Source of the DNA: an uncultured virus (IMG/VR IMGVR_UViG_3300030060_005326)
Taxonomy: Duplodnaviria; Heunggongvirae; Uroviricota; Caudoviricetes
Virus record (IMG/VR): IMGVR_UViG_3300030060_005326
Direction: 5' to 3' (one strand)
DNA: 33,242 bases
Numbering within the stretch: position 1 is the stretch's first letter; each line of letters opens with the position of its first letter. The notes beneath the pieces were generated by a model, which was not told the DNA's origin, ran no database searches, and saw only the letters and a list, made by a program, of their open reading frames with translations. Made by a program: the position numbers and the translations under genes. Shown here piece after piece: positions 11,455 through 33,242 of the stretch.

Positions 11455-11483
11455 ACTTTGGATCAGACCTCAAAGGAGGTCAA
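11455..11483 (-). promoter_or_regulatory. Sigma70-like promoter TTGACC-N17-CAAAGT with upstream A-tracts
   Basis: ATG 11447 lies 7 nt after the -10; upstream AAAAAAATTGAAAAAATAA resembles an UP element; GACCTC-AAAG-GAGGTC inverted repeat (11466-11481) overlaps the -35/spacer. The -10 is weak. Confidence 0.45.
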
Positions 11484-11491
11484 TTATTTTT

Positions 11492-13101: not shown

Positions 13102-13128
13102 TTTTTTCTGACTTATTGTTTACAATAA
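13091..13128. promoter_or_regulatory. Divergent control region with palindrome TTATTGT-TT-ACAATAA and promoter-like boxes
   Basis: Perfect 7-bp inverted repeat at 13113-13128; TTGATA-N17-TATTGT (13091-13119) and TACAAT (13121-13126) on the + strand. Confidence 0.5.
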
Positions 13129-13130
13129 TT

Positions 13131-14918: not shown

Positions 14919-14943
14919 CTTTTGACTCGAAACACTTTATATT
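14915..14943 (+). promoter_or_regulatory. Sigma70-like promoter TTGACT-N17-TATATT
   Basis: The -35 overlaps the terL stop; ATG 14951 lies 7 nt after the -10. A second TTGACT-N16-TAAGCT is nested at 14922-14949. Confidence 0.65.
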
Positions 14944-14950
14944 TAAGCTT

Positions 14951-15823
14951 ATGCCGTCTCATACACAGTCGTTCGGAGAAAAACAACTTTTAAAGGAAAT
15001 TGATAGGGAAAAGCGATTAGCCGATCAGCTAAAGGAGGAACAAGAGAGGCTGGTGAGCGCGGGTGCTTCAGACTTTGATATAGCTGAATTTGCAAGACAA
15101 GGCGCAGGGCTTCTGAGATCCGTGCAGATGTCACAAGAAGATAGTGACGCATTGTCACAACCTCTTGCAGATGCTGTTAATCCTGAAGAAGAACAGGCTG
15201 CTAGAGAAGCAGCGGAGAAAGAAGAAAGAGACTACAACAGAAAGAGAAATTTAGAAAATCGTAACGAAAGAATTTCTTTGAGGAAAAGACTGACTGACGC
15301 GATGAACTTGTCGGTCGAAGAGGGTAGAGAAGAAAGGCTTGCCGAAATAAAAGACGAAGGAATCAACGATCTAGGAATTGATCAGCAAGCTATGACTCGT
15401 GAAGTTCTTGAAGAGAGATCAAGAATTGGAAGAGAATTTGGTGAGAAAGTAAGAGCACAACGTGATGCAAAACAGAAAGCTGATTATGATGCATTCTTTG
15501 CACGGGCAAATGATCCGAATAGAACACTAGGTGTTGGAAGTCGAAGAACCGTTTACTCTAGAAATGCGGGACTTAGAAAAGCCAGAAAGCTCAGAAGGAT
15601 GGGCTTCACAAAAGCAGCAGAGCAAGCAGCCGAAGATTGGGCTAGGTCTGCAGAGAGTGATGCGCCAGCAATTAGCACTCCTGCTATGAGGGCAAAGCAA
15701 GCTCAAGATGCTTCCAGATTACAAGAGGTAAGAGAGTCTAATAGAAGACTTCAGCAACTACTTCTTCAAAGAGGTATTAAGCAAGTAGACGAAGACCCTG
15801 ATTTCAAGCCTTTCAACCGATAA
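14951..15823 (+). CDS. Putative internal virion (ejection) protein 1
   Basis: Helical, E/R/A/Q-rich, Cys-free; first of a small-medium-giant series. ATG 14951 preferred over TTG 14915. Confidence 0.55.
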   Translation: MPSHTQSFGEKQLLKEIDREKRLADQLKEEQERLVSAGASDFDIAEFARQGAGLLRSVQMSQEDSDALSQPLADAVNPEEEQAAREAAEKEERDYNRKRNLENRNERISLRKRLTDAMNLSVEEGREERLAEIKDEGINDLGIDQQAMTREVLEERSRIGREFGEKVRAQRDAKQKADYDAFFARANDPNRTLGVGSRRTVYSRNAGLRKARKLRRMGFTKAAEQAAEDWARSAESDAPAISTPAMRAKQAQDASRLQEVRESNRRLQQLLLQRGIKQVDEDPDFKPFNR

Positions 15824-15827
15824 CAAA

Positions 15828-16844
15828 ATGGCGGAACCAAGCTTAAATTTTTCGACAGACATTGCTCCTATTAGGAATTCTTTTGGTCTCACTAGTAGTG
15901 AGGCTTCTTTTACCAATAGGGTAGCAGATGAGGCAATGGCTCCTCAACTTGACATGATGCTCAAACTGAGAAGTCAATTGACGAGAGAAAGAAACGCTGA
16001 CTTAGCTTATGAGACAGGTTTGTTTGATCTACAGCAGAAGAAGAAAGAGGAGGAGGACAAAATAGAATTTGCTCAGAAATCAGAAAGACTCATGCAGCCT
16101 TTGGAAGAGATCATGAATGATCCATTTGAAGATCCATATGAGCAAATGCAAGAGCTTCAAAGACTTGCTATGGAGAACAATCAAATCTTACAAAAATCTC
16201 CCCAAGCAAAACAGCTATTCGATTCAGCAACTAAATCTCTTCAGGCTAAGTTGAATCAACAAAATCAAAAGTATGCTAGAGATTCAGAGAAAAGAGCAGA
16301 ACAAAGATTAATTGATAGAGAACAAGATCCTACTTCCCTTCTCTTGACTGAGGCTCGTGGTATTAGGACAGCAGAAGATCTTACAGCTTTTAAAGAAAAA
16401 CTTCTCGATGGTGGTTCCACTGATAAAGAAGAAGCTTTACTAGGAATAGGTGCTCAATCAGTTGAGGCGAAAAAAGAACTTAGGGCAAAAGAAACACGAG
16501 AGCAAAATCTGGCCCAAGCAACTGCGCGTCAAAGACGGGCAGACAATTTACTTAAAATAGATCAAGATTATCTAGATGATTTAAGTGCTCAACTCAAAGC
16601 TGTTGCCTCAGATATGGCTGATATTGAGGGGGACGATCCTGATGCTCTTAGTAGAAGACAGTCACTCTTAGACCAATTCCAAGGATATGAATTACCTGAT
16701 GGTTCTACACTAACAGGAGTTAGTAATGTAGGAGATGTTTCTAGGGCGATAGCGGAACAACGCAAAAAACTCAGAGATAATTATAATGCAAATTTAGGAA
16801 CCACTTCTTCTAGGAGAAGAGTTGGAGGAGGCTTCAACCGATAA
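15828..16844 (+). CDS. Putative internal virion (ejection) protein 2
   Basis: 338 aa, coiled-coil-like, Cys-free; immediately precedes the giant gene. Confidence 0.55.
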   Translation: MAEPSLNFSTDIAPIRNSFGLTSSEASFTNRVADEAMAPQLDMMLKLRSQLTRERNADLAYETGLFDLQQKKKEEEDKIEFAQKSERLMQPLEEIMNDPFEDPYEQMQELQRLAMENNQILQKSPQAKQLFDSATKSLQAKLNQQNQKYARDSEKRAEQRLIDREQDPTSLLLTEARGIRTAEDLTAFKEKLLDGGSTDKEEALLGIGAQSVEAKKELRAKETREQNLAQATARQRRADNLLKIDQDYLDDLSAQLKAVASDMADIEGDDPDALSRRQSLLDQFQGYELPDGSTLTGVSNVGDVSRAIAEQRKKLRDNYNANLGTTSSRRRVGGGFNR

Positions 16845-16871: not shown

Positions 16872-19800
16872 ATGTCAGACCCAAGCAAACCAAAACTAGT
16901 TAACGAAACTCCTTATTCTCAATGGTCATCCGAAAACATCTACGAAGATGAAGTAGAAAGTTACGGTCGTTACGCAGAGCATTTAAGGCAAGAATATCTT
17001 TCTGCTAGGGCATACACCCCAGAAGTAGAACAAGATCTAAGGGCAGGGCTAAAAGATATTTTAGAGACAGAAGGTCTGTTAGGTTTTGATACAGCAGATC
17101 AAGTTCAAGATACTCTTGATAGTATCGAGGAACCTTCTCTCTTTGAGGAAGCAAGTCTTCTTGCCGATAACATTGATTTAGTAAAAGCCTCGTCAGAAGA
17201 CAAAGACAAGATTCTTTCTTATGTGGCGAGCCAAAAAGCTGGCGGAGAACCTGATGAAAATTTAGACCCAGATGATCTTTTCCGAATCGTCAAAGATAGT
17301 AGAAGAGATCTTATTACAGATTTATATAATAGAGGAGAAATTCTAGCGGGGGTATATGAGGACGAAGAAGGTAATGAAACTTTCTTAGGTGGTAAACTAC
17401 CAGATAACATCACAGAGGAAGAGGTTATAAAGAACTCCTCTGCCTATGGCGTTAAAGCTAGGCACTTGTTTAATCTTCAAGCAAATAGGCAAAAGATTCC
17501 ACAAAGAGGGAACCTTCGATTTTATGAAATCAAAGAAAGGCAAAAGGCTGAAGTAGACATCGACGAGTTCTTTGCGAAGACTGATCAAAAAACAAAAGCA
17601 CAACTGCAAGGATTAGCTACTGAGTTAGGAAAAAGAAAGTCTTGGGATTGGGTAGATAAGGGTTGGGAAAACACAGGTGATTTTACTGGGGATATTTGGA
17701 GATCTATCCGCATAGGGTGGAATGATTTAACTGGTGATGATGAAGAAGCTCAAGAGCTTAGACAGAAGGCTCGATTTGAAGAAAATGCAGAGGCTGCTGA
17801 AGACCGATCACAAGCAACTAGAGCACTTATTATTCAGCGTTTAGTAAATGAAACTGGGTATGATTCAGAAGTTTTAGAAGACGTAGTCGATGACTATGTT
17901 ACTAAGTTAGCGTTTTATGGAGATGGTGGAGATTTCCAACCGACTTTGAAATACACCGATGACGAGGATGATCTCGCACAGAACGTAATAAAAACAAAAT
18001 ACAATGGTGTTTTAATTCAAAGAGATCTTCAATTAAAACCAGAAATGTATGCGAAAGCTCTTGCTGGGGCTGGGTTGTCGGAAGAAGAAATCAAAGAACA
18101 AGAAACTTACAGGGCAGCAGCAAACGAAGCAGAGTTCGATTCATTTAATAAAATCCTGACTGCAGACGAAGATCACGGCGAGGATTGGCAACGTGCTTTA
18201 ATAAGTGGCAAACTCAATGGTCTCAGTAACGGATTAATTCTAGAAAAATTTGTNNNNNNNNNNGCTTTAGAAAGCGTGGAGCTTGGACAAGTGTAAAGCA
18301 GTCCTTCTCTACCTTGGGTTATGGCGTGGCAGCAATGTTTGGTTCTGAATGGGGGCAAGAAGGTCTAGTAGAAAATGAAAGAGTAAGAAATCATAACAGA
18401 GAGATAGCTGGCTTATTCGGAATCGAGATGGGGACGGGGCAAGATATTATTGAGCAGGTTGCCCCAATGTTAACTGATGCAGTTATTACTGGTGTAGCAG
18501 CATTAGCTACAGTCCCTACTGCTGGCGCAAGTGCTGCTGGAGGTGCTGCTTACTTTAGTGCAAAAACTTCAGGAACTGCTGTTGCGAGAAACATCCTCAA
18601 AGAATCCTTCAAAGGAACTTTCAAAAGGGGAGTAAAGAAAACTGCAGAAGGAAAAGTAGTAAGAGAATCTCTAGAAGATGTAAGGGATAGAATTGTAGCT
18701 AACGCTACCTTGGGAAAAGATGTAACCGCTGATACGATTTATGCAGCTACAAAGGGTTACAACAGTAAGTTAGGAGCTACTCTAGGAATCAAAGCAGCTA
18801 CTTTTGTTCCTGCTGCTACCAGATCTGGGTCGATGACTTATGGTTCGGTGTATAGCACAATGACTGAAAGTCTAACAGCAGAACATAAAGATGCTGGTGG
18901 AGAATGGCATGAAGGTTGGAGTGAAGAGAGAGTTAAACAAGAAGCACATAAGGTTGCATTCGGTGCAGGGCTTCAAGCAGGAACAACGACAGGTCTTCTT
19001 ACCTCCGCAATGGGATCTATTTTTGGTGGTAAGCTGGGAGGTTTGGAGAACGCCTTTCTTAAAGGTCTAAGCTACAGGCAAACAAGAGTTGTCACTGAGC
19101 GTTTGTTGGGCAAAGAAGTTAGTGACGTTGCTTTTCAAAAAGCTCTAAAGAAAAGTATCACCAAAGTGATGTCAAAGAATGGTTTTGGTGTTGCTAAAGA
19201 AATAGGGTTATCGGCATTAGGTGAAGGTATTGAGGAAGGTCTTGATGAATTTGTTAACACCTTGATTCAAGATGCTTACACAGGACAAGACACCCCTCTA
19301 AAAGAGAGGATGACCTCGACCTTTCAAGGCGTTATATTGGGAGGAATCATGGGGGCGGGATCTCCTTCATTGGGGAGAGTATCCCGTAACGCAGCAATAA
19401 GATTTAGATTTGATAAAACACAAGCTCGTTTACTTCAAGATGAAGTGTTGGAAGACTACAGAGAACGCATCGCAAGTGATGAAGCTCTCAATGAAAAGTA
19501 TAGTAGACTATATGATTCTGGAGCACCTCAAACAGCAGAAGCTGCTAAAGATGCAGATAAAAGGAAGCAGATAAACGAGAAGTATAATCAACCAGATAGT
19601 CCCGAAGCGGATCAAGACGCACCACAAGATCAACAAGATGCTCAAGCTGATGCGGGTGCTGCTGAACAAGATGATGTTCTCCCCGAAATTGATGAGGATG
19701 GAAACATAATTCCTAGAGAAGTAGTTGCTCAAAGAAAAAGGGAAGAAGAAATAAAACAAGAAGATGAGATACTAGAACAACTAGAGCTTGTCTTCGCTAC

Positions 19801-22800
19801 GACTCCACAAGAAGAAGTTGAAAAGGTAATTGATGACGTAGATTCAGAGAGCGAATCAGAAAATCAAACAACTGTAGACCCTGATATAGAATCAGATCCA
19901 ACTATTACTAAAGTTCTTGATTCAGACGAAAACGTCGATTCCAAAAAAGACAAGGCTTCTATTACTACTCCACACCCAGCGAATGTTGACACGCTTACAG
20001 CCAGACAAAAACATTCAGCTACTCTTGCTGATATCGAAAGAAAACAAAAACGATATCAAGAAGCTCAAGCAAATATTTCAGTATTAGAAGGACAAGAGCT
20101 TGAAAAAGCGCAGCGAGAAATAGATCAAGCTGTTGCAGAAGGAAGACTACACACGCCAGAGACTGCGTCCTTTAGCAGAAAAGAAGCAGACAAAGTTTTA
20201 GAGAAAGATCTGGCGGATGAAAGTAAACCTGCAGTTGTTTCTGAGAAAGACATCTCTTCATTATCACAACTAGAGGCAGCAGGATTTCCCGTTACTCTAA
20301 TTAAAGAACACCTAAATCAATTTGATTTAAATCTAGATAAGGCTGATCCGAAGTATCTAAATGCGGTGACCGCTAAACTAGCGGAAGCTATTAGAAAAAG
20401 ATTTCCTATTCTTAAAAAGAGAATGCCTAAAGGTGGTCTTAGAATACCCAGTGCTTTTGGTGGATCTGTCAGAAGTGTATTTATAGACGCTGATGGAAAT
20501 GGGGTATTTAACAATGACCCCTTATCAATGCTTACCTTGTTGCAGAATGGAGTCCCTATTCCTCTATCAGATCAAGACGCGACAAGCACAACGATAAATA
20601 AATCTTTTGATGTTAAAGATATTTCAGGACAGAAATTTGTAACGGATGTTCGTATACCTGTCTCAGGTGGTTACGTTTCTGCGCGAACTGCCTTCAATAA
20701 AGTAGGTGCTCACCAAGCTGATTACAGCAAAGTGGTAGCTCTTATCTCGCAAAACAAACGCTTTAGAGATTACTACTCTAATTCCAACATTCTCGAAAGT
20801 CCTGAAGGTCTTGGGGGTAAAAGATTTAAAGACCCACTAAATCCCAAGAGGAAAGCTACACTACAAGAACTCTTAAAAGACGCGCAAGATATTGGTAAAT
20901 TAAAAGGCATCATTGCTAATGACGATACTCTTAATCTTAACAAAGATTATCTAGATGCAATGGCTGTGTCTCTTAGTATATCTCTACAGAATAGACTTTA
21001 TTCATACGGCATTGATGTTGTTGCTGGTAATGCCAAATCAGATGTCCCTTACAACATAGGTGAGGTTAGAGATAGCCAAGGTCAGTTCTATAAAAAGCAA
21101 CAGGCACAAAGGTCTAAAAAAGCTAAACGTGATTTAGCGAGTATCATAAGTCCTAACTCCCCTGTCCTTAATGACCCTTCTGTTCTAAATGTTGATACTA
21201 CGGTTGAAGACAATTTCGTCCCACCACGAGTAAATCCAATCGCTCCAATCCCCCAACCTAAACTAGAGTCATTCTTAGGTAATTTATTTACAGAAGGTGA
21301 AGAAGCACTGAGGGATAATTTACCACTGCGAGCTGCTGTTAAAAGTCTTCTCGATAATGAGATGCACGGAGGTCGTAAGACTACTAAGTTTTATACCCCA
21401 AAGAAAACTTTTGAGGAGTTAGTATTCTTTTTAGCTAAAGGATCTTCAGTTACAAAGTTCCAACAACTTAATTCTGTTCTCAATCAAGGCCAAGTCTACG
21501 GAGATACAGGAACCAAGCTTAGAAGATCTTTAATGCTTCTAGGTATGTCGAACCCCACAGTTGAAGGGACTCCCCAAAACAATCTAGAATTTGGAGATCT
21601 TGTTAAAGGAGAACTACAGAAGCTAGTCGGGTCGGATACGGAAGTTACTGCAAATGATGCCATTGATTTCTACAAACAAGTTAGAGAAGGTGCTGCTGTA
21701 TATCGTCAGAGAGCTGTTGTAGATGGTAGATCAAGAAGATCTACTGCTCGAAAAAATTACAAAGAAATAGAAGAGCTGGGTCTTGAAGAGGGTAACCCAG
21801 AGTCTGTCATAGCTGCACTAGAAGAGATAGCTAACGGTAAGGTCAAACAACTTAGGCTTGCTGCTAGAGCGATCCTGCAAAACAAAGCCTTAATAAGATC
21901 AATTAGATTCGAGATAGATCCGTCTGATGCTACCTATGCAGGTCTATATTACAGAGATGAAAATGGACAACCCGTAGTTGTAATTAATCCTAACAGATCT
22001 GGGGGTAGGGGAGTAGCTGATACTTTAGTTCACGAATACGTTCACGCATTTACTAACGACATTATAAATGCAGACCCTGCTTCAAGGACACCTGCTCAAA
22101 ATGAAGCAGTCGCTAGTCTTGCTCGTTTGTTAGAAAATATTAAACGAGAAGTAAAAGGAGATGACCCACAACTATTAAAGTTTGGCACAGAGAATTTAGA
22201 TGAGTTTGTTGCTTATCTGCTAACAGCTCCTAAGTTCCAGAGCTTTGTTCGGGGGATCAGGCCAAGAGATAGGCAGCGAAACTACTTGGAAAGAATCTTT
22301 GATTTCATAGCTAAGATCTTCCGTGTTCCTAACAAAGCATTCAACGAAGCTATCAGAGATACTCTCGACCTAACAAAGAGAGCAGGTATCCCTGATCCTG
22401 AATCTGAAACAGGATACGTGAATCAGGTTGCAGGAAGCATAGTGGAGAATCAAACAGTTCTCTTTCAGATGGCTGAAGATATGGGCATGGCTGAGACAGC
22501 TCAGACTAGTGCTGCACTTGAAAGATCTATTGATTCTTACAAAGCATGGGTGAGAAATTATCTACCCGACGAAGTTGGTTTGGTATTTGACGAGACTTCC
22601 GATGTCATAGTCAAGACAGACCCAGCAACAGGAGCTGTTATATTTAACCCAAGAAGAGCTGCCATTAAGTTGTCGCAGGTAGTTTCCGAAAATGAGTTAG
22701 ATCCGATGAGGCGCGAGCACATCCTCGCTTCATTGTTGAATGAAGAGATAGCACACACCGCATCCTTTGCTACTCTGACTGATGCTCAAATTGTAGAGAT

Positions 22801-25800
22801 AGCAGACTCAATGACGGAGGATGATTACAATAGAATCATCGATGAATATTATCCTATTGATGAACGGGCCGATGCCAGAGAAAGGCTGCTCAGTGAAGAC
22901 GCTGCAGAGTCGAGCAAAGAGAGATACATTCTAGTTGAAGAATCTCTACGAAGCCACGCACAGAAAGTGATGCGGGGAACTGAGACGAATGCCCAGATAG
23001 ATTTCCTGCTTACCAACCCATCCTTGATGGCAACGGTTAAGCAATACTTTAAGAACCTGATAGCAAAACTTACTTATCACAGAACTCTTAATCAGGTCTC
23101 ACCTGAGATGAAAGTTGCTGTGATGAACGTAGTTAGGGAGATAAGAGCTATTGAAATGGGATATGCTACAGCAGATTCCAATATGGATTTCAATCCTAGA
23201 AATCCTCAAGCTGTTATTGACCAGCTTATCAAGCAAGCTATCGGAACTAACTCTCTTATTAAAGACACGCCAGAGCCTGTGGTTTTGGAATCACGGTTTG
23301 GAACAGGTGAATTGTTGCCTGTTAACACCGCGCAAACTGAAGTCGATGACGCACTGCTCAATGGTCGTGGGGATATTGACACAGGAATAAAAGGTTCTGC
23401 TGTCCACGAGCTTGCGAAGTTCATGGATAGTTTGATGCCAGCTAGAGAAAAGATTGATTGGCAAAAGAACTGGAGAGGGAAGAAGAAGAGTTTCAAAGAT
23501 ATTCCACAGAAAGAGAAAGCCTTTAACAGGGACATTGAAAGGTCAGGGACACGACTAGTCGGAGTCCTTCAGCGAGCACTTAACGAATACCCAGATTTTG
23601 TTTCTTGGTATGAAGAACGTGTGAGTATGGCTATGGATATCTTTGCCGAGTTAGACTCAGATGCATCTAATCCAGAAGACGATTTCATATTGAAAGTTCT
23701 CATGACCGTTACCTCTAATGGTAATAAAGTTAAAGAACAGACAGAAGATTCATGGGCGTTGTATCAGAATTGGAAGAGGACTGGTAAGTTAGTCCCTGCT
23801 ACAAAGAACAATCCTGATAGAACTCAACTAGATAAAGATGGCAAAGAAGTTCCAGTCTCTTGGATAAGAGGAGACAGACAGGATCAGATTAAAAAGCACC
23901 TAGCTCTAGTTGACAGACTTATTGCAGAGCACTCATGGGAAACTGTTAGTGAATTCTTTTCTAGGTCAGGAACAAGAGCAGAACTTATAGCTGATTTGCA
24001 AGAGACGTTTGGCTTCTCTAAAACCAGAGCAGAGAAACAAACAGGGGGTGAACTAATGGACGAGCAGGTTCCTTACTCTCTTCTTTTCGGAGCCAAGCTG
24101 GGGTCGTTTTATAATAACCTCAATGGAGATTTCGAGACGATCACAATGGATCGCTGGTTCATGAGAACTTTCGGTAGAACTTTAGGGGCGCAACTCCGCA
24201 AGTATAACCGAGCAGAAATGAAGGAGAAGCACGACCGCTTTGATAAAGCTCTCGCTGCATACCTGAAGCTAGATCCCAAAGCTACACTATTTAAGTTTGC
24301 TGATTCACAAAGAACAGACAAGACAAAGCTAGATCCAATAGGTCGGAAGAGGAAAAGAAATGCCACTATGGTTTTAGCTTTGGCGAAGTATTTTACTAAG
24401 TCTTCTAATAGGAAGTTAGCCTTCGATCCTGAGACAGGAACTATGGAAAAGTTCACAGGTGAGATGGAAGACGCAGCCCCAATCACTAACGAACTGAGGC
24501 TCGCAACAAATGGTTTATCTAAAGCAATTGATTCATTTGAATTAATAGAAGCCCCTGCTAGTGGGGGACATCGTAGATTTATAAGACTTGCGATGAGGAA
24601 TGCTCTGGATAAATTAGAAAAGGAACAAGGAATCAAGATGGTTCCTGCCGAAGCACAAGCAATATTATGGTATTATGAAAAAGCCCTCCACGCAGAATAT
24701 GGATCAGGACAAGATGGTGAAGCCCCAGACTACGCGACAGCAGCGAACGAAGTCTTCAAGGAGTCCAGAGGAACGAGCGCAGGATCCTTTAGAGAATCCA
24801 CCGCCAACATTAGAGGAAGAGGAATACGACAAGAACCTGACGCTGCTGCTGGAGGAACTGGGGGCATAGCACTGGAGTCTCGATTCGGGGCAGACTCTTA
24901 CATTCCTGCAGAGATAGATGTAGAGGGTGCAGACTTCTCTAACTGGTTAGAGATATTAGAAGTTCCTTTGATGGACTTTGCTAAGTATGACGCACCCAAT
25001 ACTTTCAAACAAATCTTTGCGAGGAAAGCAGACAAGAGAGTCATATCGTTCCTCGATCAAACGCAAGCGTTTATCAGAGAGACAAAGAAGATTGTTAAAG
25101 TATATCAGGACAGGGCTAACAAAGTAATAGAGGATGAAGAGAAGAAAGGGATGACCATATCTCCAAGACTTATTTCTATTGCTTCTGGTTCCAACATGGG
25201 GACGCAGTTAAGTGACGAACAGAAAGCTCTGGTAGACAATCAATTCAAGGCAGACCAAGCCAAGTCTAGAGGACTTCCTCAAAAGGAAAAAGACAAAGTT
25301 CTTCAGCAAGCTGAAGATAATAAGAAGGCAAACATCACGAGGCTCAGAGAGCAGAACCATGATAGGCTCATACGTGAAAGGAACGCTGCCCTTGAAGATC
25401 TTCTAGTCGTGTCTCCTGCAATGTATGAGATTGTGGTGGAGATGAGGAAGCTAGTAGATCAACTCTCCATGAAAGGAGAAAAGATCTTTGAGGGGACAAT
25501 GGATCGTGATGATTTCAAAGCAGCCTTTGATTTCAACAGGGGTATCTACATCACCAGAAGATACCGTATGTTTGAAGAACCAAACTTTATTAATCAGGTT
25601 CTTAACGAAGACGATGCTACCTACGTCAAAGAAAGAGAAGCTGCTATCCTATACTTTGCTCGTCGATACAAGGCGCAAAGAATTCAGGAGCTGATGGAGA
25701 AAGAAGGACTCACGAAACAGGATGCAAGAAAAAGGGCAGACGATGAAATGAATCAGAAAGATTCTGTGCATCTTTCCGAAGGTAAGCAGATGATGGAGAA

Positions 25801-28211
25801 CTTCGTCAGATCATACGCTGCAGGAAAGATCCGCCGTGAAATTGGAACTGCTCAATCTGTTGATGGTGCTCAAGCACTTATTATAGACGAGGATAAGTTC
25901 CCGAAAGGCCCACTCAGATCGCTCGCTCAAGAACTGAATGAGAAGAAAGATATTCCAGAACCAATTAGAAAATTACTTGGTGAGTATGGTGCTGAAACTG
26001 GGCTAGATAATTTAGCTTACACTGTTGTTCACACAGCTAGTGTTATGGCGAACCAATCTTTCTTCAACAAGATGAAAGAGTTTGGAACAAAAGCAGGTGA
26101 TGGCAAAGAGCCTTGGCTTTTGACAGCTCAAGAATTTGAAAAGCTATCTAAAGAAAACCCTACCAAGTATGCGGAGTGGTCTAGGATTGCCCCTGATAAA
26201 GGGCAGCTAGATCTAAATCCTTTGAAGGGTCTCTACGCACCTAACGTAGTCATCTCTAACTTGAATGACCTTATCAAGAATGAGCGGGTAGAAACTTCTA
26301 AGGCAGCACAGGATGATCTCAACAAGCGTTCAGTAATTCTTCAAAAGGTGGGAGCATTTATAAGAAAGGCAACTGGATACAGCTTGGCATACAAGACTCT
26401 AGGTGGTGTTGGTTTCTATGGACGTAACTTTATAGGTAACGCTTTGTTCTTCGGCCCAATGCAGGGATACTACGGTGGCATCGGTAAGGCTTTTGAAGAA
26501 ACTAAGAAAGCAATCGTAGGAGATGACACATCATTTATAAGAAGAGCAGCTCAAGGATCTAAAGCAGACTTAGATTTTGCTATGATCGAACTGGCTACCA
26601 TGAATGTCTTCGGAGATGAGTTGGAAGTTAACTTGTTGCAGAGTCTTCTTAAAGAAGAGAAGACTTATAAGAGTCTTGAAGATGATACTGTAGAAGCAGG
26701 TGGTCTTGCGGTGAAAGTTTTGAAGTTGATGGATAATGGTAAAAAGACAGTGCCAGAATCACTACGCAAAGAATTAAAAGACAAAGGATTTAAGGTAGGG
26801 AAAAGCCTCAAAGAAACACATGACCTACTGCTAGAGTTTGGTNNNNNNNNNNCGTATGGCTTCTGCAGCAGACGCTTACTTTAAGGTAGGACTTTATGAT
26901 TACGAACTGAGTGTTCTTAAAGATGCTGCTCAGTGGGAAATCCAAAACGGTAAGCGCGATGGTAGGTATGCTCGACTCCTCGATAAGGATGGCAAGCCCA
27001 CTACAGCTATGAAACAAATGGCTGCAGAGATTGTTAAAGATACTGCTCAGTCATACAGCAGGGCTATTCCGCTAGTTAAAGATATAACAAATAGCAACCT
27101 GTCTGTTGTCATGGCTCCGTTCATTAGGTTCGCAGCCGATGTCCCAAGAGTAGCTCTCAATGGGTTCCTAAGAATTGGTAAAGAGAAGAACGATTCTAAT
27201 CCTATTATCCAAGCGAGGGGCAAGAAGAGGAAGCTAGGTTTCCTTGGAATGAACTCAACAATCGTTCTTGTTCCGATTATACTTAAAGCACTTCAAGGGA
27301 TTGGAGAAGATGAGGACGAAGCACTACGCGAAAGCCTTCCTCCATACATGAAGGACAACACTTTCTTCTACACCCCGAATCCCTTTAAGAAAGATGGAAC
27401 ATGGAGCTGGGATTTCACTTACCTAAATCCATTCGCTATCATTCAGGATCCCCTGATGAGAATGGGTGAGCAAATTTTCAGAGGTAACTACGCAACAGGA
27501 GGGAAAAAGTTCTTCAATATTTTGAAGCCATACCTCCAAGAACAGATCCTTGCCAAGGCTGTATACCAGATGGTGGTTAACAAATCTGATTATGGGGATA
27601 AGATAACTTATGAAGGGGAGCCAAATGTAATATTGAAGAGGGCATTATATGCAGCGAACACTGCCTTTGCCCCACGATCTTTGAAAGCACTCAATGATGC
27701 ACAAGTATCTTTGAGATCTGATGAGACACAACTAGAACGAAGTCCCTTTGGCGTGTTCTTTAGAGAAGCTCTTCCTGTTAAACCATACCCAATGGATCCA
27801 CTCAGGAGCTACAGGTCTTACCTAAAGAAACACATGGAGGATTACCGCGCTTCATCAAAACCTCTAAGCCGTTTGGTAAACACCAAAGGGATGACTAAAG
27901 GGCAGATACAGAGATTGTATAATGATTACGCCAAGACAAAGATATATCAGAACAATCAACTAAGGAGAGTTCTTCGGGGCTTCAGAGGTCTTGGGGTTAC
28001 GGCTACTCAACTCAGAGAGAACGCTTTGTCCAGAGGTATAAGTAAGAAGAGATACCGTCAGGTCATGACAGGCTTTGCCGACAGACCAATTTTAAGTAAG
28101 CCACTTGAGGATGCGTTAAAGCGAACACCTCAAGGAAGAGAGAGGCTCAAAGTATTAAAAGATTTTTACGAAACCGAATATCCAAAACCAGTAATATCTC
28201 TAGGAGAATAA
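16872..28211 (+). CDS. Giant (~3,780 aa) polyvalent internal virion/ejection protein, split into three ORFs by two N gaps
   Basis: ORFs 16872-18296, 18314-26884 and 26838-28211 change frame only at the gaps (18254-18263, 26843-26852), and each downstream frame is open right from the gap. Contains G/A-rich hydrophobic helices, HEYVH zincin motif (22031-22045), an enzyme-like domain at ~23590-24700 and a helical C-terminal region (PFIRFAADVPR). Confidence 0.8.
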
Positions 28212-28429
28212 TGAAAAAGAAAGACTTCAAACCACACACAATGTATAACCCCAAGACTGGGGAAGGAACTAAAGCAGCCACATACGAACAACACCTAAAG
28301 CTAAAGAAAATGGGATACGGACACAGCAAACCAGCCAAGAAGAAATCCGCTAAGAAGAAGACAGCTAAGAAGAAGAGTAAAACTTCTTTCACTGACGCTG
28401 TTGCAAAGCGGATGGGTGGAGGATACTAA
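28211..28429 (+). CDS. Small Lys-rich basic protein, possible DNA-condensing/core protein
   Basis: 'FKPHTMYNPKTG' N-terminus followed by AKKKS/AKKKT repeats reminiscent of histone H1 tails. Confidence 0.7.
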   Translation: MKKKDFKPHTMYNPKTGEGTKAATYEQHLKLKKMGYGHSKPAKKKSAKKKTAKKKSKTSFTDAVAKRMGGGY

Positions 28430-28836
28430 AGTATCTTCTGCCTGATGGCTTCGGTCATTTCCTCTTTGAGAACCTGATAGTTCTCATCAGAGCAAGCTCC
28501 CTCACGAGGGGGCTTTTCTTGTTGTCTCTCTTGACGGAACATTGCCTTTGCTAAGATGGCATAGTTAATGATGTCTTCACACGCATCGTCCACCGTCTCT
28601 CCTGATACGGATAGTTGTCCATCGTTCGTGAAGGTTTTGATACGTTGGATCTTATCCATTACACGCATCATGATTCCAGTTACAGGATGCACATCCAGTA
28701 TGGTTGAGCAACGGAAGTTAGCGAACACATCGTCCGCCTCCTTCCCTCCTGTATAATCATTGTTCTTCTGCTCCATTATCTGACGGCATCTGTCCGTAGT
28801 TTCTTGGTGTAGTTTTAGTAGTTCTTTAAGGGTCAT
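28426..28836 (-). CDS. DUF1599 / nucleotide-modification-associated domain protein (all-alpha NTP pyrophosphatase-like)
   Basis: KNNDY, FANF, 'RVMDKIQRI' and 'ETVDDACEDIINYAIL' signature. Confidence 0.8.
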   Translation of the reverse strand: MTLKELLKLHQETTDRCRQIMEQKNNDYTGGKEADDVFANFRCSTILDVHPVTGIMMRVMDKIQRIKTFTNDGQLSVSGETVDDACEDIINYAILAKAMFRQERQQEKPPREGACSDENYQVLKEEMTEAIRQKIL

Positions 28837-28928
28837 AGGTTGTATTTAATAAGGGCTATAAATAAAATGAATAAGCCAATCAACAAGAAGACACCTGCCT
28901 GTATCTCTCTGTCGTTAATTAGATCCAT
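28833..28928 (-). CDS. 31-aa single-TM microprotein (not in ORF track)
   Basis: MDLINDREIQAGVFLLIGLFILFIALIKYNL; fills the apparent intergenic gap; stop overlaps the DUF1599 start (ATGA). Confidence 0.6.
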   Translation of the reverse strand: MDLINDREIQAGVFLLIGLFILFIALIKYNL

Positions 28929-29166
28929 TTGTTCTCGCAAGTTTAGTTAAGTGAACTGCCATCCTGTTTGCTAGTTTAGTTGATGCTTTAGAGTTATCTG
29001 TAATCTCTGGCCCAATTACTTCTTTACCAGCAAAGTTAACCCAGATAGCAAAGACCCTCACGGTTGCAGGATCTACATAGTCTTCTATGAAATCCCCTTG
29101 GATAAGTAGTCGTGGGCTATCCTGTTGGTCATCATAATTGTATAAGGCTCGGACAATGTGCTTCAT
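28915..29166 (-). CDS. Hypothetical protein
   Basis: 83 aa; ATGA-coupled to the upstream gene. Confidence 0.65.
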   Translation of the reverse strand: MKHIVRALYNYDDQQDSPRLLIQGDFIEDYVDPATVRVFAIWVNFAGKEVIGPEITDNSKASTKLANRMAVHLTKLARTNGSN

Positions 29167-29453
29167 TTTTTGAATGCTTTATCTGTTACCTCATGAATTG
29201 TTTTCTCTATGTAATTATAGTTGGGACTCCCACTAAAACCTGTCTCTCCAGATAGGGCGAGGATACTTCTGATAAACAGATCAAGGTGTCTTTCTTGGTG
29301 GGCGCGAACACAACGGATGCTGGCTGATGGTGCAAAGGCAATGATGCTCCACCCCGAAGGGTTCATGTCATCTTCATCTGTCCTTGCTTTGATTGATATG
29401 GTTGCTTCGTTTAGGGTTATAACTTTAGCCCTAGTGTTTGATGGTTCTTTCAT
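29163..29453 (-). CDS. Hypothetical protein
   Basis: 96 aa; starts 2 nt after the helicase stop. Confidence 0.65.
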   Translation of the reverse strand: MKEPSNTRAKVITLNEATISIKARTDEDDMNPSGWSIIAFAPSASIRCVRAHQERHLDLFIRSILALSGETGFSGSPNYNYIEKTIHEVTDKAFKK

Positions 29454-29455
29454 TA

Positions 29456-30847
29456 TTAAAATGGTTTGTCTTCTGTGTAATAAGAGGAGGTAAACTCCCC
29501 AACTTGTGAGTGATGGATCCTGTTCATGTTCCTCATCTTTTTACTGATGGCTCGCATGACATATTGTTCTATGGATCCATTCGATATCATCACCTTTTGT
29601 AAGGCATCAGACTTAGCACCGTTACGATGTATACGTCCTAACACCTGTGAGAATTCTTTAGCATTAAAGCTAGGGCTGATCAAAGATAAGCGGGGGCGAT
29701 TACCAATGACATCATGGAGCGAGATACCTGTCCCGCCTGTAGCTGCATTGATAACTACACAATTGGTTTTGTCTTCTTGGANNNNNNNNNNTTCATCTCG
29801 CTTCTCCGCTTTGACAGAGCCGTCGATGTAATCGCAGTTGAGTAAAGTCTTTGTCTCCATCAAGGACTCTTTGAAGTTCATGAAGACAACTACATTATAC
29901 CCTTCTGTTACTGCATCTTGTGCCATAGTTACAATGTCTTTTACTTTGAGCAACTCGCACTCTTGTCTGGCCCTCAGTATCTTAACGAGGATTGACATCT
30001 CATCTAGTTCATCAACCAGTTCTGCTGGGAGTTTACCTTCTTCAATGTATTCGGTTATATCAGAAGCCGTCATTTGAAGAGACTTATAACTCTTCACAAT
30101 CTTGTCGTTGTTGGTGAACTCAATCGGATCGACAAGAACACGGTTGTCCCTGAATGAATCAGGGAAGTCAGCAACGGTAAGACCATTAGTATTCTTGCCA
30201 TACATAGAATCTCGTAGCTTCTCCAGAGCGTAGTCAACGTCAGACATTTCATACCCTCCGAAGTATCCCTTCCTTACCTTCAGTGTCTGCATCCATAAGA
30301 ACCAACTCAGCTTGCTGCCTCTGCACTTCTCATTACTGTGAAGNNNNNNNNNNAGCCCTAGCATATAGCCCAGTGGTCTCATCTCAGTAGGACATTCACA
30401 GGGTGTTCCGCTCATGCCATGAACTTTGAACCCGAACCTAGCAAGAGAGATCAGGAGGTTAGCGTTCTGTGTCCAAGGCCCTTTGGCTTTGTGTATCTCA
30501 TCGAACAGGACAAGAGTTCCTTTCGGGATCTTCCACCTGAATGTCTTCTTGCCTATCTTGCTAACCCACTCGGACTTGCCAGTGCGTAGTTTCTCAAGGT
30601 TCAAAACAAACAAAGGATCTATGCCTGTCTCTTTTAGCTCTGCCTTCCATGATGGGAACACAGCCTTGGGGCAGACAACGGCAACACCAGTAATCTTGCC
30701 TTGATCCAGAAGAGTCTTGGCAACTTGTGATCCTACCACTGTCTTGCCAGTTCCCATATGAGAACTATCCAAGGTGTTTTGCCCATTGCTCAACCAGTTA
30801 ACGAATAAGTCGTGAGCACCTTTCTGTTTGGGGAATAGTTTCTTCAC
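29456..30847 (-). CDS. SF2 (SNF2-like) DNA helicase
   Basis: MGTGKT, VVCPK, FDEIH, SGTP, GGTGISLH, QVLGRIHR motifs; spans two N gaps. GTG 30847 is coupled to the upstream stop. Confidence 0.9.
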   Translation of the reverse strand: MKKLFPKQKGAHDLFVNWLSNGQNTLDSSHMGTGKTVVGSQVAKTLLDQGKITGVAVVCPKAVFPSWKAELKETGIDPLFVLNLEKLRTGKSEWVSKIGKKTFRWKIPKGTLVLFDEIHKAKGPWTQNANLLISLARFGFKVHGMSGTPCECPTEMRPLGYMLGXXXXLHSNEKCRGSKLSWFLWMQTLKVRKGYFGGYEMSDVDYALEKLRDSMYGKNTNGLTVADFPDSFRDNRVLVDPIEFTNNDKIVKSYKSLQMTASDITEYIEEGKLPAELVDELDEMSILVKILRARQECELLKVKDIVTMAQDAVTEGYNVVVFMNFKESLMETKTLLNCDYIDGSVKAEKRDEXXXXQEDKTNCVVINAATGGTGISLHDVIGNRPRLSLISPSFNAKEFSQVLGRIHRNGAKSDALQKVMISNGSIEQYVMRAISKKMRNMNRIHHSQVGEFTSSYYTEDKPF

Positions 30848-31058
30848 GTTCCTAGCTTCGATGCTGCTGCCCAAGTCTCAATGACGGTCAGGCAATCCTT
30901 GAGAGTTTCATTACCGTCGAGGTAGACCCACTCTCCTTCTGATTGCTCATAGATACACCATCTCCCNNNNNNNNNNGGCTGCGATCCTCGATTCTGTAAT
31001 TGTTATTCTGAGCATCAACTACTTCGTAGAAACCCTTCTGTATTTTTCTAACGATCAT
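30844..31058 (-). CDS. Hypothetical protein (~70 aa) spanning an N gap (not in ORF track)
   Basis: MIVRKIQKGFYEVVDAQNNNYRIEDRS-[gap]-GRWCIYEQSEGEWVYLDGNETLKDCLTVIETWAAASKLGT; ends in a GTGA overlap with the helicase. Confidence 0.6.
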
Positions 31059-31060
31059 GA

Positions 31061-31468
31061 TTAAAGATTCAGGGTGCGGGGTTCAAGTTCATCTTCGATT
31101 GCAGTGAGGTCATCGATTGCTTTGAGCACCTCGACCTTCAGCTTGTAATCCATATCGGAGACAGCGAGCTTTGCTTTGATCTCACTTGCTGTCCATGCGG
31201 GATCAGTTGCCATTACTTTGGCGTGGGTAATTCTCTTCGCCCCCTTCGGTGCAATGGTTACAGTGTCGGGTTTAAACTCAGGCTCTGGTGCAGAGTCTAG
31301 TTCTCCTATCAGGCTTGCCATCTTCTGGCGGTAAACCCACCTATGTCTTTTCTTACGGAGAGTGAACTCTGGTGTTCCTCCGTTCATTCCGTCAGGATCG
31401 AGAGAAGTAATATATTCTTCTCCGTTTAAGGTCACCTCACGGTGAACTGGTTTGTCTAGTTTTGTCAT
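31061..31468 (-). CDS. Hypothetical protein
   Basis: 135 aa in a tightly packed minus-strand operon. Confidence 0.7.
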   Translation of the reverse strand: MTKLDKPVHREVTLNGEEYITSLDPDGMNGGTPEFTLRKKRHRWVYRQKMASLIGELDSAPEPEFKPDTVTIAPKGAKRITHAKVMATDPAWTASEIKAKLAVSDMDYKLKVEVLKAIDDLTAIEDELEPRTLNL

Positions 31469-31470
31469 AT

Positions 31471-31686
31471 CTATTTCAGGTATTGTTGTAGTTGTTGTGG
31501 GGATCCACTAGGTAAGTGAATACAAGCAGATCCAAATTCGGTTAGTTTACTGTCTAAAAGTTCTTCATCATCAGGTCTCGATCTGGGGGTCTCCCTCGCT
31601 ATAACGTATCCCCCCCTGTATGAGCGACCTACACATTGGAGGCTGAGAGATTCTCGGATCTCGGCTATCGTTGCATTAGTATCCAT
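31471..31686 (-). CDS. Hypothetical protein
   Basis: 71 aa; 11-nt overlap with the upstream gene. Confidence 0.6.
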   Translation of the reverse strand: MDTNATIAEIRESLSLQCVGRSYRGGYVIARETPRSRPDDEELLDSKLTEFGSACIHLPSGSPQQLQQYLK

Positions 31687-32029
31687 GAGGTAAGTAACTG
31701 TGGGGGTTGGCTCTCATCTCGTCGAGGTCTGTAAGGTAGGGTTGTCCGTGTTTGTCTTTGTCGTAGAAACAACGCTCGCAGAAGATGGCATCATGCCACT
31801 CGTGAACGAACCCTTCGTCGAACCATGAGGAAGCATCAGGCGATAGAACATTCTCCGCGCCACAACGATGGCACTCTTCTATCTCCCAATCGAGGTAGTC
31901 TTCTTCTTCTTCTTCTTCTTCTTCGAGAAGATCAAACGGATTGTCGTGGGGCTTGCAAGACACTGCAAAGAATCTCAATACAAAGATCATCACAAGCACC
32001 CACGATAATATAATTATTGTTAGCGTCAC
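31676..32029 (-). CDS. Membrane-anchored acidic protein with CxxC...CxxC Zn-binding motif
   Basis: N-terminal TM helix, E8 tract from (GAA)8 at 31901-31924, CHRC...CERC. Confidence 0.65.
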   Translation of the reverse strand: MTLTIIILSWVLVMIFVLRFFAVSCKPHDNPFDLLEEEEEEEEDYLDWEIEECHRCGAENVLSPDASSWFDEGFVHEWHDAIFCERCFYDKDKHGQPYLTDLDEMRANPHSYLPHGY

Positions 32030-32187
32030 TTGTCGTATGCGGATGAAAGCTGATCCTCAACTTCAGTCTTCAGTAGCAGGAGCTTGGCTCTTACCTCTTG
32101 AGACAATGCCTGATCATTCTCTTCATTGATCATCTCCATCAGATCATTAATGTGATCGTCGAGTATTTCTAATATTTCAAACATCAT
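32026..32187 (-). CDS. Small acidic helical protein (53 aa, not in ORF track)
   Basis: MMFEILEILDDHINDLMEMINEENDQALSQEVRAKLLLLKTEVEDQLSSAYDK; 4-nt overlaps at both ends. Confidence 0.65.
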   Translation of the reverse strand: MMFEILEILDDHINDLMEMINEENDQALSQEVRAKLLLLKTEVEDQLSSAYDK

Positions 32188-32354
32188 GATGTGTATTGTT
32201 GTTGGTATTCTAAATCTTTATCCATAGCTTCCTGAGCCTCTCGTGCTCGCTCATCTAGCCATTGCTCATACTCCTCAACGTCTCGATCCAGATCAGCCTG
32301 AGTCCAGTGAGCGTAGGCTCTCTTGCCGTCCATTATTAATGCTTCAATGTTCAT
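32184..32354 (-). CDS. Small acidic protein (56 aa, not in ORF track)
   Basis: MNIEALIMDGKRAYAHWTQADLDRDVEEYEQWLDERAREAQEAMDKDLEYQQQYTS; ATGA overlaps at both ends. Confidence 0.65.
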   Translation of the reverse strand: MNIEALIMDGKRAYAHWTQADLDRDVEEYEQWLDERAREAQEAMDKDLEYQQQYTS

Positions 32355-32629
32355 TGTTCAGGGTATCTAAAGCCTCCTCCATCCCACTGTCCTTGAGCTA
32401 GGTCAAGCTCCCCCACCTTCTTGACGGGGCGCATATCTATTTTTACTTTTCGCATCGTTATGAGAAGTGCCTTGGCATCATCTCTGGATACGTCCACGCA
32501 CTTGTAATCAACAGGCCCTACTCTCACCGTAGCAAAGGCTCTCCGTTCTTTATCTTTCGGGATGATCAAACCCAAATGCTCGTTGTCGTAGTGGTTGGCG
32601 TGATCGTATTTTGTTATTCTTATATTCAT
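32351..32629 (-). CDS. Hypothetical protein
   Basis: 92 aa ORF downstream of the long hairpin. Confidence 0.65.
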   Translation of the reverse strand: MNIRITKYDHANHYDNEHLGLIIPKDKERRAFATVRVGPVDYKCVDVSRDDAKALLITMRKVKIDMRPVKKVGELDLAQGQWDGGGFRYPEQ

Positions 32630-32648
32630 CTTACTAAAGGGTGGGGGT

Positions 32649-32713
32649 GACTCTGCCCCAAAGATGTTCTTAACCCCACAGAAAAGAACACCCCCTCCAT
32701 TGGGGGCAGAGTC
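32649..32713 (-). other. Long interrupted RNA hairpin in an intergenic region
   Basis: Outer stem GACTCTGCCCC (32649-32659) / GGGGCAGAGTC (32703-32713); inner stem TGTTCTT (32665-32671) / AAGAACA (32684-32690). Confidence 0.7.
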
Positions 32714-32719
32714 GAATTG

Positions 32720-33025
32720 TTATAGTTTGATATCGGCAAGGGGTTTACCTAGTGCGGTTCTGTGATTCTTGCGGGGCGCGTTTGCCCAGTCAATGAGACA
32801 CCATATCGGAGCCAGTAACATAGCGGGGACATATGTCACAGCTAGGAAGTGGAGCAGGTTATACTGATGAAACTCAACAGCACCTTCTGCCACTTCATAC
32901 CACCCACTGATGTTTGCGATAGCTTGATCAAGCCCACTGAAGTAGACCATGAATCCAAAGAAGAAAAGCAAAGCGGTGTGAGTGGTCACAACTACACTTA
33001 CAAAGTGTGAGATGTAGCGTCTCAT
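32720..33025 (-). CDS. Hypothetical membrane protein (2 TM helices)
   Basis: Two long hydrophobic segments separated by a polar loop; basic C-terminus. Confidence 0.7.
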   Translation of the reverse strand: MRRYISHFVSVVVTTHTALLFFFGFMVYFSGLDQAIANISGWYEVAEGAVEFHQYNLLHFLAVTYVPAMLLAPIWCLIDWANAPRKNHRTALGKPLADIKL

Positions 33026-33213
33026 GATACCACCTCCTTCGCTGCCTTCTCCAATTTATCAAGGTTGATACCCATCTGGATTATCTGCTCCTTGGCATAG
33101 TGATGGTTGGAGGGGTTGTCGCTCTGCAAAAGAACGATTAATATTTTACTCGCTGCCTCCCATGTCATGGACATCGGTAGCACTTCTCCTTTTTTCTTAT
33201 TCATCTTATTCAT
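33022..33213 (-). CDS. Hypothetical protein
   Basis: 63 aa; ATGA-coupled to the next gene. Confidence 0.6.
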   Translation of the reverse strand: MNKMNKKKGEVLPMSMTWEAASKILIVLLQSDNPSNHHYAKEQIIQMGINLDKLEKAAKEVVS

Positions 33214-33242
33214 GATTCGATATACATACGTTATGATCGGGG

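Follow-up and report, generated by a model that had tools for sequence, protein, structure and literature searches.

Why would one very large phage protein carry the same hexapeptide twice, at the two ends of an enzyme-like module, in copies that do not share a single codon? The question is raised by a 33,242-nucleotide stretch of DNA from an uncultured virus of the Caudoviricetes (IMG/VR record IMGVR_UViG_3300030060_005326; the whole stretch is called the window here), in which LESRFG is encoded at 23285-23302 on the plus strand (TTG GAA TCA CGG TTT GGA) and again at 24872-24889 on the same strand (CTG GAG TCT CGA TTC GGG). The two copies lie 529 amino acids apart in the same frame of one open reading frame (ORF; product P0001, residues 1658 and 2187), which belongs to the gene for a giant homologue of podovirus ejection proteins. 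All six codons differ, all of them synonymously, and 12 of the 18 bases are identical. An initial annotation had proposed the repeat as a candidate processing signal of a self-cleaving, injected polyprotein that would be cut by an upstream HEYVH peptidase; the positions and codons on which it relied proved exact when re-read. Our analysis indicates that LESRFG is almost certainly a functional peptide under selection and that it marks the borders of exchangeable cassettes in 19 close relatives. A second domain of the same protein, D2, emerges as the best candidate for the factor that reads it, ahead of the HEYVH domain, D1.

Taken alone, the repeat in the window is not significant. A repeated 6-mer arose in 22.75% of 2000 shuffles of P0001 (same length and composition) and in 41 of 126 shuffled giant proteins, and P0001 contains 5 repeated 5-mers against 4.28 expected. 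The synonymous codon differences had been offered as a sign that the repeat is retained at the protein level; they do exclude a recent DNA duplication, but a chance match would look alike. No further copy of LESRFG was found in the six frames of the window, looser patterns included, and LESFLG at P0001 residue 984, considered as a third site, was dropped as unconserved in relatives.

The repeat becomes significant because relatives carry the motif. Exact LESRFG occurs two or three times in eight close homologues (P0002, P0004, P0005 and P0010-P0014), and other relatives have LQSRYG, LQSRWG, LQTRIG or LESQFG where BLAST homology to the window breaks. Matches to the motif pattern numbered 49 in 83 homologues, against 2.1 expected from shuffles. 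The pattern L[EQ][ST][RQ].G has 49 matches in 19 close-clade proteins of ~4000 amino acids, with 1-5 per protein, so that the conservation anticipated for aligned homologues is indeed found. All 49 fall inside the variable region between conserved backbone parts and none in the other ~3000 residues, and the same peptide stands at equivalent positions in relatives down to 33-49% identity. A chance hexapeptide repeat in a long protein, suggested by the shuffles of P0001, is refuted by the excess of 49 over 2.1 and by this placement, and its probability is negligible. Across 21 copies in 9 genomes, Leu, Glu/Gln, Ser and Gly each occur in 21 of 21 and Arg in 20, with Pro at position -2 in 13. The general form of the peptide is L-[EQ]-[ST]-[RQ]-x-G-[AS]-[DGN], usually with Pro and Arg/Thr ahead. 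The 21 copies use all 6 Leu codons, 5 Arg codons from both families, 4 Ser codons and 4 Gly codons. Synonymous sites are thus saturated and selection holds the peptide; it is this saturation across 21 copies, not the difference between the two copies in the window, that makes protein-level selection real.

The position of the motif is as regular as its sequence. In all 19 close-clade proteins the last copy lies 9-12 residues before the C-terminal backbone, and in 16 of them the first copy lies 13-30 residues past the upstream backbone. In the window, copy 2 sits 9 residues ahead of the conserved C-terminal backbone (24899-28211, plus strand; ~1100 amino acids, 38-92% identical in 15 loci). Copy 1 follows a linker (NSLIKDTPEPVV; 23249-23284, plus strand) that comes after the conserved upstream backbone and at which homology with relatives stops. 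Copy 2 follows a second linker (…RQEPDAAAGGTGGIA; 24821-24871, plus strand) that is unconserved in the alignment of the cassette model (A3). The stretches KDTPEPVV and AAAGGTGGIA, on which the description of the linkers as flexible had rested, are both present. Two AlphaFold2 (AF2) models, whose underlying alignments are shallow (13-14 rows), place both motif copies in stretches with a predicted local distance difference test score (pLDDT) below 50, copy 1 at model residues 19-24 and linker 2 at residues 531-576; linker 1 also scores below 50. These stretches flank a folded module, in agreement with the earlier view that the copies enclose one globular, enzyme-like unit. In these features, a short conserved peptide in accessible predicted linkers at module boundaries, LESRFG resembles a processing site. 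Furthermore, in four relatives' contigs (74-95% complete) the motif occurs in the giant ORF only, apart from two loose matches in short ORFs; it was not found in the other long ORFs of these contigs.

The segments between motifs belong to at least 10 cassette families, which are unrelated to one another and occur in combinatorial order in the 19 close-clade proteins. Family 1, the window's own, is 498-535 amino acids long and occurs in 13 proteins; family 2 (624-716 amino acids) matches Pfam DUF7178; families 3, 4 and 5 measure about 292, 305-319 and 190 amino acids, and five families are singletons. Relatives thus hold different domains between such sites, as a self-processing polyprotein with exchangeable effectors had led the initial annotation to expect. 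It had also pointed to relatives with a single site and no cassette. Loci L010-L015 are cassette-less, with backbone parts 49-58 residues apart, and do have a single site, but it is degenerate, not an intact LESRFG-like one: only relics are left (SLRNRL..., then TESQFG, TPSQFS or TGSQFS). The first two motif residues therefore decay where there is nothing to separate. In a 92%-identical relative, L001, an extra 162-amino-acid module (L001:7913-8401) lies between the backbone and site 1; it matches tRNA_lig_CPD, a 2H phosphoesterase family (Pfam E 1.2e-6), and no junction peptide precedes it.

Exchange of a cassette is visible in the comparison with G002, which is 75% identical to the window in the terminase, 61% in the polymerase and 25-33% in the giant backbone, and 81.5% identical in the cassette. 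By sliding identity (L017), a tract at 23320-24816 (plus strand) shares ~80% DNA identity with G002, with background identity outside, and the tract stops just inside both motifs. The G002 protein, P0003, has LYSAPF ahead of the cassette and LYSAPL ahead of the C-terminal part, and in P0030/P0037 cassettes of this family stand between GKPGIETKASK and PKLITKASK. Since the same cassette has different bracketing peptides, the peptide goes with the frame and not with the cassette. Among 67 proteins with a family-1 cassette (rows with less than 110 amino acids of flank were skipped), the flanks share a hexamer at five or more of six positions in 29, an exact one in 14 and none in 38; on this count, bracketing of the family-1 cassette is frequent, not universal.

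The coincidence of exchange breakpoints with the motifs could also mean that the repeat is a recombination joint, which either results from the exchange of cassettes or serves it and does nothing in the mature protein, comparable with VENN-type motifs and those of T-even tail fibres. Such a joint is improbable, because a peptide that is invariant over saturated synonymous sites needs protein-level selection. The 12 shared bases, with all synonymous codon families in use, are too little for homologous recombination, and the exchanged tract excludes the motifs.

Distant copies of the cassette, with 26-30% identity, occur in 2790-3125-amino-acid proteins of L019 (MW202640.1) and L020 (PQ492659.1), between genes annotated as 'phage stabilization protein / M23 peptidase' and a tail fibre gene in 39-kb podoviruses. 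The record of Limnohabitans phage DC33 is filed under Inoviridae, which its gene content does not fit.

What the slot of the window holds is predicted to be one 529-amino-acid DUF7178 module with a DNA-glycosylase-like fold. The folded part of this family-1 cassette lies at 23309-24820 (plus strand). Its AF2 model is folded over residues 27-530 (pLDDT 77.5; predicted template modelling score 0.76), and DUF7178 is matched in Pfam at E 0.0024 and by Atlas DUF7178 clusters with scores of 0.96-0.97. The 23 best VIA-align matches of the model are all HhH-GPD glycosylases or their fold relatives, with Z 6.0-10.6, although in such helical models a Z under ~13 can reflect a common arrangement. The best is 3n0u_A (Z 10.6; root-mean-square deviation, rmsd, 3.4; 198 of 209 residues aligned), and the next are NTHL1, ROS1, MagIII, EndoIII, OGG1, MutY, AlkA, Qng1 and PaMx11 gp46. 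In the alignment of 13 sequences, G287-x-K289-x-G291 and D307 (P0001 residue 1946) are invariant, the latter in TMDRWFMR, 16 residues after the putative hairpin (segment GAKLGSF...TMDRWFMR, ~24089-24151, plus strand). By eye, the G-x-K-x-G hairpin and later Asp resemble the HhH-GPD hallmark. The cassette has no Pfam HhH-GPD match and no PDB sequence match in a profile search, and Foldseek against the PDB returned nothing at E <= 0.001 for the cassette model or for the D1-D2 model.

Which factor, then, acts on the peptide? The initial annotation chose D1, an HExxH zincin-like domain at 21833-22255 (plus strand) with HEYVH at 22031-22045 (P0001 residues 1240-1244). Across 14 sequences the H, E and H never vary and the E of N-x-[DE]-E-F hardly does; the motif, a likely third-ligand Glu and the order of AF2 secondary structure fit a zincin core. 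Fold matches to zincins are weak (anthrax LF, Z 5.4; 6mdx, Z 5.0). A profile of residues 1100-1690 matches the PhiM1 gp48 ejection protein 8vb2_A (E 1.8e-5) and 9sfn_G (2.8e-5) over the HExxH helix, and VIA-align superposes D1 on 8vb2_A with Z 10.8 and rmsd 3.5 over 145 residues. D1 also has a tblastn match (5e-6) to the HExxH region of the virion RNA polymerase (vRNAP) of the N4-like phage Presley (residues 2194-2289, HEIMH at 2212). The counterpart of that region in N4 is the C1 domain (PMC13434306), and the HExxH domain of N4-like vRNAP is called metallopeptidase (MPTase) by Iyer et al. (PMC5512222). The Pfam polyvalent MPTase model does not match the protein studied here.

A further point for D1 is that its motif type differs with the peptide of the clade (HEYxH with L[EQ]SRxG, EEYVH with L[FY]SAP, HELLH with DIRFQ), but co-variation at the level of clades depends on phylogeny. 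The assignment of the cut to HEYVH nevertheless did not hold up well. The HExxH of D1 is intact in every relative compared for the motif, including 15 of 15 that lack it. Two of the giant proteins, P0172 and P0193, carry 3-4 junction peptides and have no HExxH anywhere, with the EExxH of D2 intact. The homologous N4 vRNAP is packaged unprocessed according to PMC5512222, and the main text of the PhiM1 gp48 paper (PMC11440229) makes no mention of HEXXH, peptidase, protease or cleavage. A complex prediction of D1 (A1 residues 55-262) with the site-2 peptide scored 0.01, which gives no verdict either way. We consider it unlikely that D1 is the peptidase that cuts LESRFG.

Two solved podovirus internal proteins, 8vb2_A (~382-505) and 9sfn_G (~420-553), carry a conserved HExxH (HEAAH and HEAVH, respectively) aligned to that of D1. 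In 21 of 153 D1 domain hits, all from one clade, EExxH stands in place of HExxH, and D2 alternates between the two forms across the superfamily. Glu thus seems to have replaced the first His ligand repeatedly; we know of no described zincin variant of this kind.

D2 behaves differently. This beta-sheet-plus-helix domain at 22493-23020 (plus strand; residues ~1394-1569) carries NEEIAH, an EExxH motif, at 22739-22756 (residues 1476-1481), and its AF2 secondary structure has three strands before the helices (E324-345, H365-387). At the corresponding position, 129 domain hits have EExxH in 88 cases, canonical HExxH in 26 and other residues in 15. Of the close-clade proteins, 22 have an intact D2 and every one of these carries the motif, whereas the nine with a degenerate D2 lack it. 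Fourteen further proteins obey the same rule (8 and 6), which brings the totals to 30 of 30 proteins with the motif where D2 is intact and 15 of 15 without it where D2 is degenerate. The motif-less P0087 (NKAMGE in D2), P0088 (NEEIGR) and P0089 (RRQVGH) retain 552-789 residues of cassettes, which are 62-75% identical to those of L007, and their last junctions read IQSQFA, PEWGDP and QPSTFG. A backbone tree of 28 rows (the near-duplicates P0005, P0011, P0012, P0014, P0085, L002, L003, L008, L009, L013 and L015 were left out) has three separate losses of D2 and three of the motif, and the independent pairs agree in 3 of 3. Comparisons of this kind make D2 the best candidate for the reading factor, and we think it probable, with a good share of doubt, that the motif is acted on by D2.

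The co-loss bears directly on the possibility that the peptide is cut by a protease encoded elsewhere, either a host enzyme or a prohead protease that cannot be recognised from its sequence. Many ORFs of these phages lack a family assignment, and a Glu or Gln at position 2 followed by Ser resembles the P1 Glu/Gln sites of 3C-like and some phage head proteases. A protease acting in trans would, however, leave the co-loss with D2 unexplained. The S78 prohead protease family (PF04586) was found in 0 of 5 contigs, and no peptidase family scored above the Pfam threshold among the 63 ORFs of G004 and G002 (74% and 95% complete). The motif keeps to the giant protein and does not occur in ORFs of the capsid region. 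Moreover, G001 shares replication genes that are 92-97% identical and yet has no motif, so that the peptide follows the backbone. A separate protease is accordingly a poor prospect. The only other peptidase-like signal in the relatives' genomes is a sub-threshold match to DUF6782, a 'putative metallopeptidase', in a 117-amino-acid ORF beside an amidase (L021:10942-11292, in G004; E 6.5e-4, 19.5 bits against a cut-off of 27).

The reading that we favour can be put as follows. The protein has a fixed frame, made of an N-terminal part with D1 and D2 and a C-terminal part of ~1100 amino acids, with the slot region between them. A copy of the peptide, in a linker predicted to be disordered, stands at the start of each slot, and the slots can take up, lose or swap enzyme cassettes that are unrelated to one another. 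The peptide would most likely be a proteolytic processing site, at which cutting, in the capsid or after ejection, would free the cassettes and separate the backbone halves. It would be read by D2, with NEEIAH as an EExxH variant of HExxH, rather than by D1. For this mechanism as a whole, with the peptide cut by the protein's own D2 and the cassettes freed, we estimate a probability of about 0.4 from the sequence comparisons.

Several observations weigh against it. D2 has no Pfam match and no PDB sequence match in a profile search, and its fold matches are unspecific helical proteins: with the 591-residue D1-D2 model, VIA-align found a meaningful partner for D1 only, and for the D2 part it listed globin- and phycobilisome-like helices (Z 6-7) and no peptidase. 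Eight distant proteins with a canonical HExxH in D2 matched no peptidase family in Pfam. The link between D2 and the motif amounts to three independent events (sign test, p 0.25), many of the 45 rows being near-duplicates, and P0087 keeps the near-motif IQSQFA despite its degenerate D2. Not every border is marked: in L001, P0006 and L007 no motif precedes the first module, and ~130 additional amino acids in P0007 also lack one. A predicted structure was to show whether the motif lies in linkers or docks into the zincin cleft; AF2 placed it in the cleft of neither D1 nor D2. No cleavage product or split gene was seen, and when close relatives of the cassette that stand alone were sought, the only match was a 914-amino-acid piece 100% identical to the query. 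The best-studied homologue of D1, N4 vRNAP, is the unprocessed protein mentioned above, and HExxH also occurs in non-peptidase alpha-ketoglutarate-HExxH hydroxylases, as cited in PMC13434306. An origin of the two domains by tandem duplication of D1/D2 is not supported, because hhalign of one against the other gave a probability of 0.2% (E 0.31) and aligned only VVVINPNRSG with AVIFNPRRAA.

Some of these points fit a peptide that stays uncut, a docking or modification motif bound or modified by D2, by the ejectosome or by a host component; with one copy per module, it would organise packing, ejection or refolding of the chain. The Leu, Ser and aromatic residue at i, i+2 and i+4 are spaced as in a strand added to a beta-sheet, and the invariant Ser/Thr could be a site of modification. 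Loss together with D2 is as compatible with binding or modification as with cleavage, the hydroxylases show another chemistry for HExxH enzymes, and N4 vRNAP works uncut. Such a role is nevertheless doubtful. The motif lies exactly at module boundaries and not anywhere in the linkers, its first two residues decay where there is nothing to separate, and lineage-specific sites at every boundary are the pattern of viral polyproteins.

Cleavage is, in our assessment, the probable action on the peptide. We infer it from the likeness to viral polyproteins, from the proposal of Iyer et al. (PMC5512222) and from the loss of the first motif residues in proteins with no modules to part. As to the cut itself, our guess is that it falls after position 4, ahead of the variable position 5 (R|F), in view of the i, i+2, i+4 spacing and the preference of zincins for a hydrophobic P1' residue.

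Junction peptides are not restricted to the close clade. A profile of the backbone retrieved 907 proteins at E <= 0.001, of which 126 representative giant proteins were examined. Pairs of repeated 6-mers were rejected as a general detector because of their high background (present in 67 of 126 real proteins and in 41 of 126 shuffled ones), and were replaced by a 7-mer in at least three copies, at least 80 residues apart, with unrelated flanks. Such junction peptides were present in 15 of 126 representatives and 0 of 126 shuffled proteins. They comprise KLQxRYG, VGTSFG, LETRFG, ALxSGLG, GLQSAI, LFSAPT, LxSELGA, the DIRFQ[LP] type, RFQQGxV, VRETQxG and NPxQIKSADP, and many fit [LV]-x-[ST]-x-hydrophobic-G. 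In a separate lineage with HEL[LFV]H in D1, (S/T)PDIRFQ(P/L) occurs in 2-4 copies in P0171, P0183, P0191, P0198, P0202, P0204, P0205, P0207 and P0211, and P0205 additionally has NPxQIKSADP three times.

On these grounds we tentatively suggest that giant ejection and polyvalent proteins may be programmable polyproteins, a generalisation that is possible but far from assured. In them, an EExxH/HExxH domain of the frame would read a lineage-specific peptide, and any enzyme cassette placed between two such peptides would be delivered into the host and set free as an effector. Protease and site would co-evolve within each backbone, which would let cassettes pass from phage to phage while the peptides remain with the frame. 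The peptides would be of the L-x-S-x-aromatic-G types (LESRFG, LQSRYG, LETRFG, VGTSFG, LxSELG, LFSAPT) and of a second type, DIRFQP.

The protein in question is encoded by a gene of ~3780 codons at 16872-28211 (plus strand), now in three ORF pieces. The ORF at 18314-26884 (P0001, 2856 amino acids) is its middle piece only; runs of 10 N at 18254-18263 and 26843-26852 separate it from the adjoining pieces, 16872-18253 and 26853-28211. The three pieces are colinear with residues 17-476, 484-3474 and 3476-3927 of an uninterrupted 3927-amino-acid ORF in L001 (79-93% identity), and the real gene therefore has ~3780 codons; proteins of relatives have 3800-4757 amino acids. The window contains five runs of exactly 10 N, the other three at 29782-29791, 30344-30353 and 30967-30976. 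The first two shift the apparent frame and, by comparison with L001, hide ~7 and ~1 codons.

The gene comes after that of the large terminase (13116-14918) and two small ORFs, and the window further encodes a family-A DNA polymerase (7520-9313, minus strand), an endolysin, an exonuclease and a helicase. The C-terminal piece matches PHROG 22602, 'virion structural protein', at E 1.6e-9. We call the product an ejection protein because its D1 region matches PhiM1 gp48, 9sfn_G and the Presley vRNAP, and as a homologue of podovirus ejection proteins it was reasonably described as 'injected'; homology in fold or sequence to solved ejection proteins covers only ~200 of the ~3780 residues. Several unrelated domains share the one polypeptide (D1, D2, the DUF7178 glycosylase-like cassette and the C-terminal backbone), and relatives add ART-PolyVal and LPD domains (Pfam) and the 2H-phosphoesterase cassette (tRNA_lig_CPD, E 1.2e-6). 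Judged from its gene alone, it is an enlarged ejection protein of the polyvalent kind. No cultured relative of this phage was found in the cultured-phage collection, in which its terminase has no match.

The surrounding genome is strongly mosaic. G001 is 92-97% identical to the window in the primase-helicase, polymerase, exonuclease, endolysin and terminase, and only 37-52% identical in the giant gene, in the ORFs at 14915-15823 and 15828-16844, and in that at 491-2308. This comparison (L030-L032; window 1-16844 and 28400-33242) suggests that the virion/ejection module either passes between phages or changes much more quickly than the replication genes. A 725-amino-acid ORF with DUF5906 (primase/helicase-type; 5346-7523, minus strand) overlaps by 4 bases the start of the 597-amino-acid family-A polymerase, a pair that is kept in G001-G004.

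Close known systems include the polyvalent proteins of phages and conjugative elements (Iyer et al., 2017), giant proteins that mix HExxH MPTase-type domains with diverse enzymes. PMC5512222 proposes autoproteolytic release of domains for them, as the initial annotation had stated, but defines no cleavage or junction motif, and the terms 'linker', 'low-complexity' and 'recognition site' are absent from its main text. The protein described here differs from that account in its defined peptide, its slot architecture, its empty-slot relatives and a D2 that co-varies with the peptide. PhiM1 gp48 (8vb2; PMC11440229) and the C1 domain of N4 gp50 (PMC13434306) are homologous to D1, and here too the proteins are very large, travel in the phage head and are expelled into the host; the region in common with them ends upstream of D2 and the cassette slots. 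Unlike the window protein, the Presley vRNAP has no repeated 6-mer and no junction peptide, and the N4 vRNAP reported as unprocessed in PMC5512222 departs from the mechanism favoured here.

Our literature searches, outside whose coverage subscription journals lay, returned no description of such a motif and none of DUF7178 or of cleaved virion polyvalent proteins. In viral polyproteins, such as those with 3C-like L-Q|S sites and pp220/pp62 of African swine fever virus, a virus-encoded protease reads short conserved sites. The likeness lies in one product with a recurring site of 6-8 residues at every boundary and a lineage-specific sequence. The difference is that we deal with a virion protein of a DNA phage, that the candidate protease is a metal-motif domain rather than chymotrypsin- or SUMO-like, and that cleavage is here a reading of the pattern. 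Polymorphic toxins use VENN (CdiA) and PxxxxDPxGL (Rhs) as demarcation motifs, which likewise are short peptides at the border of a constant frame and exchangeable enzyme modules. They have, however, one border, a C-terminal toxin and an immunity gene, whereas here several internal slots are followed by a continuing frame and the DNA of the joint is unconserved. In T4, phiKZ and SPN3US, the prohead protease trims ejected and internal head proteins by cutting at short consensus sites. It is an essential head protein in its own right and has capsid proteins among its substrates; neither such a protease nor a capsid-protein site was found in the genomes compared here.

Few phage proteins are larger or less well understood than the polyvalent and ejection proteins, whose autoprocessing has been proposed since 2017 with no defined site. 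At this locus both the peptide and the boundaries of the slot are exactly defined, empty and decayed forms serve as natural controls, and there is a candidate domain, D2, that is not the obvious HExxH one. If the mechanism is true, it would explain how exchangeable enzyme payloads are delivered with the first protein that enters the cell, and it would provide a rule by which thousands of giant phage proteins that lack annotation could be divided into functional units.

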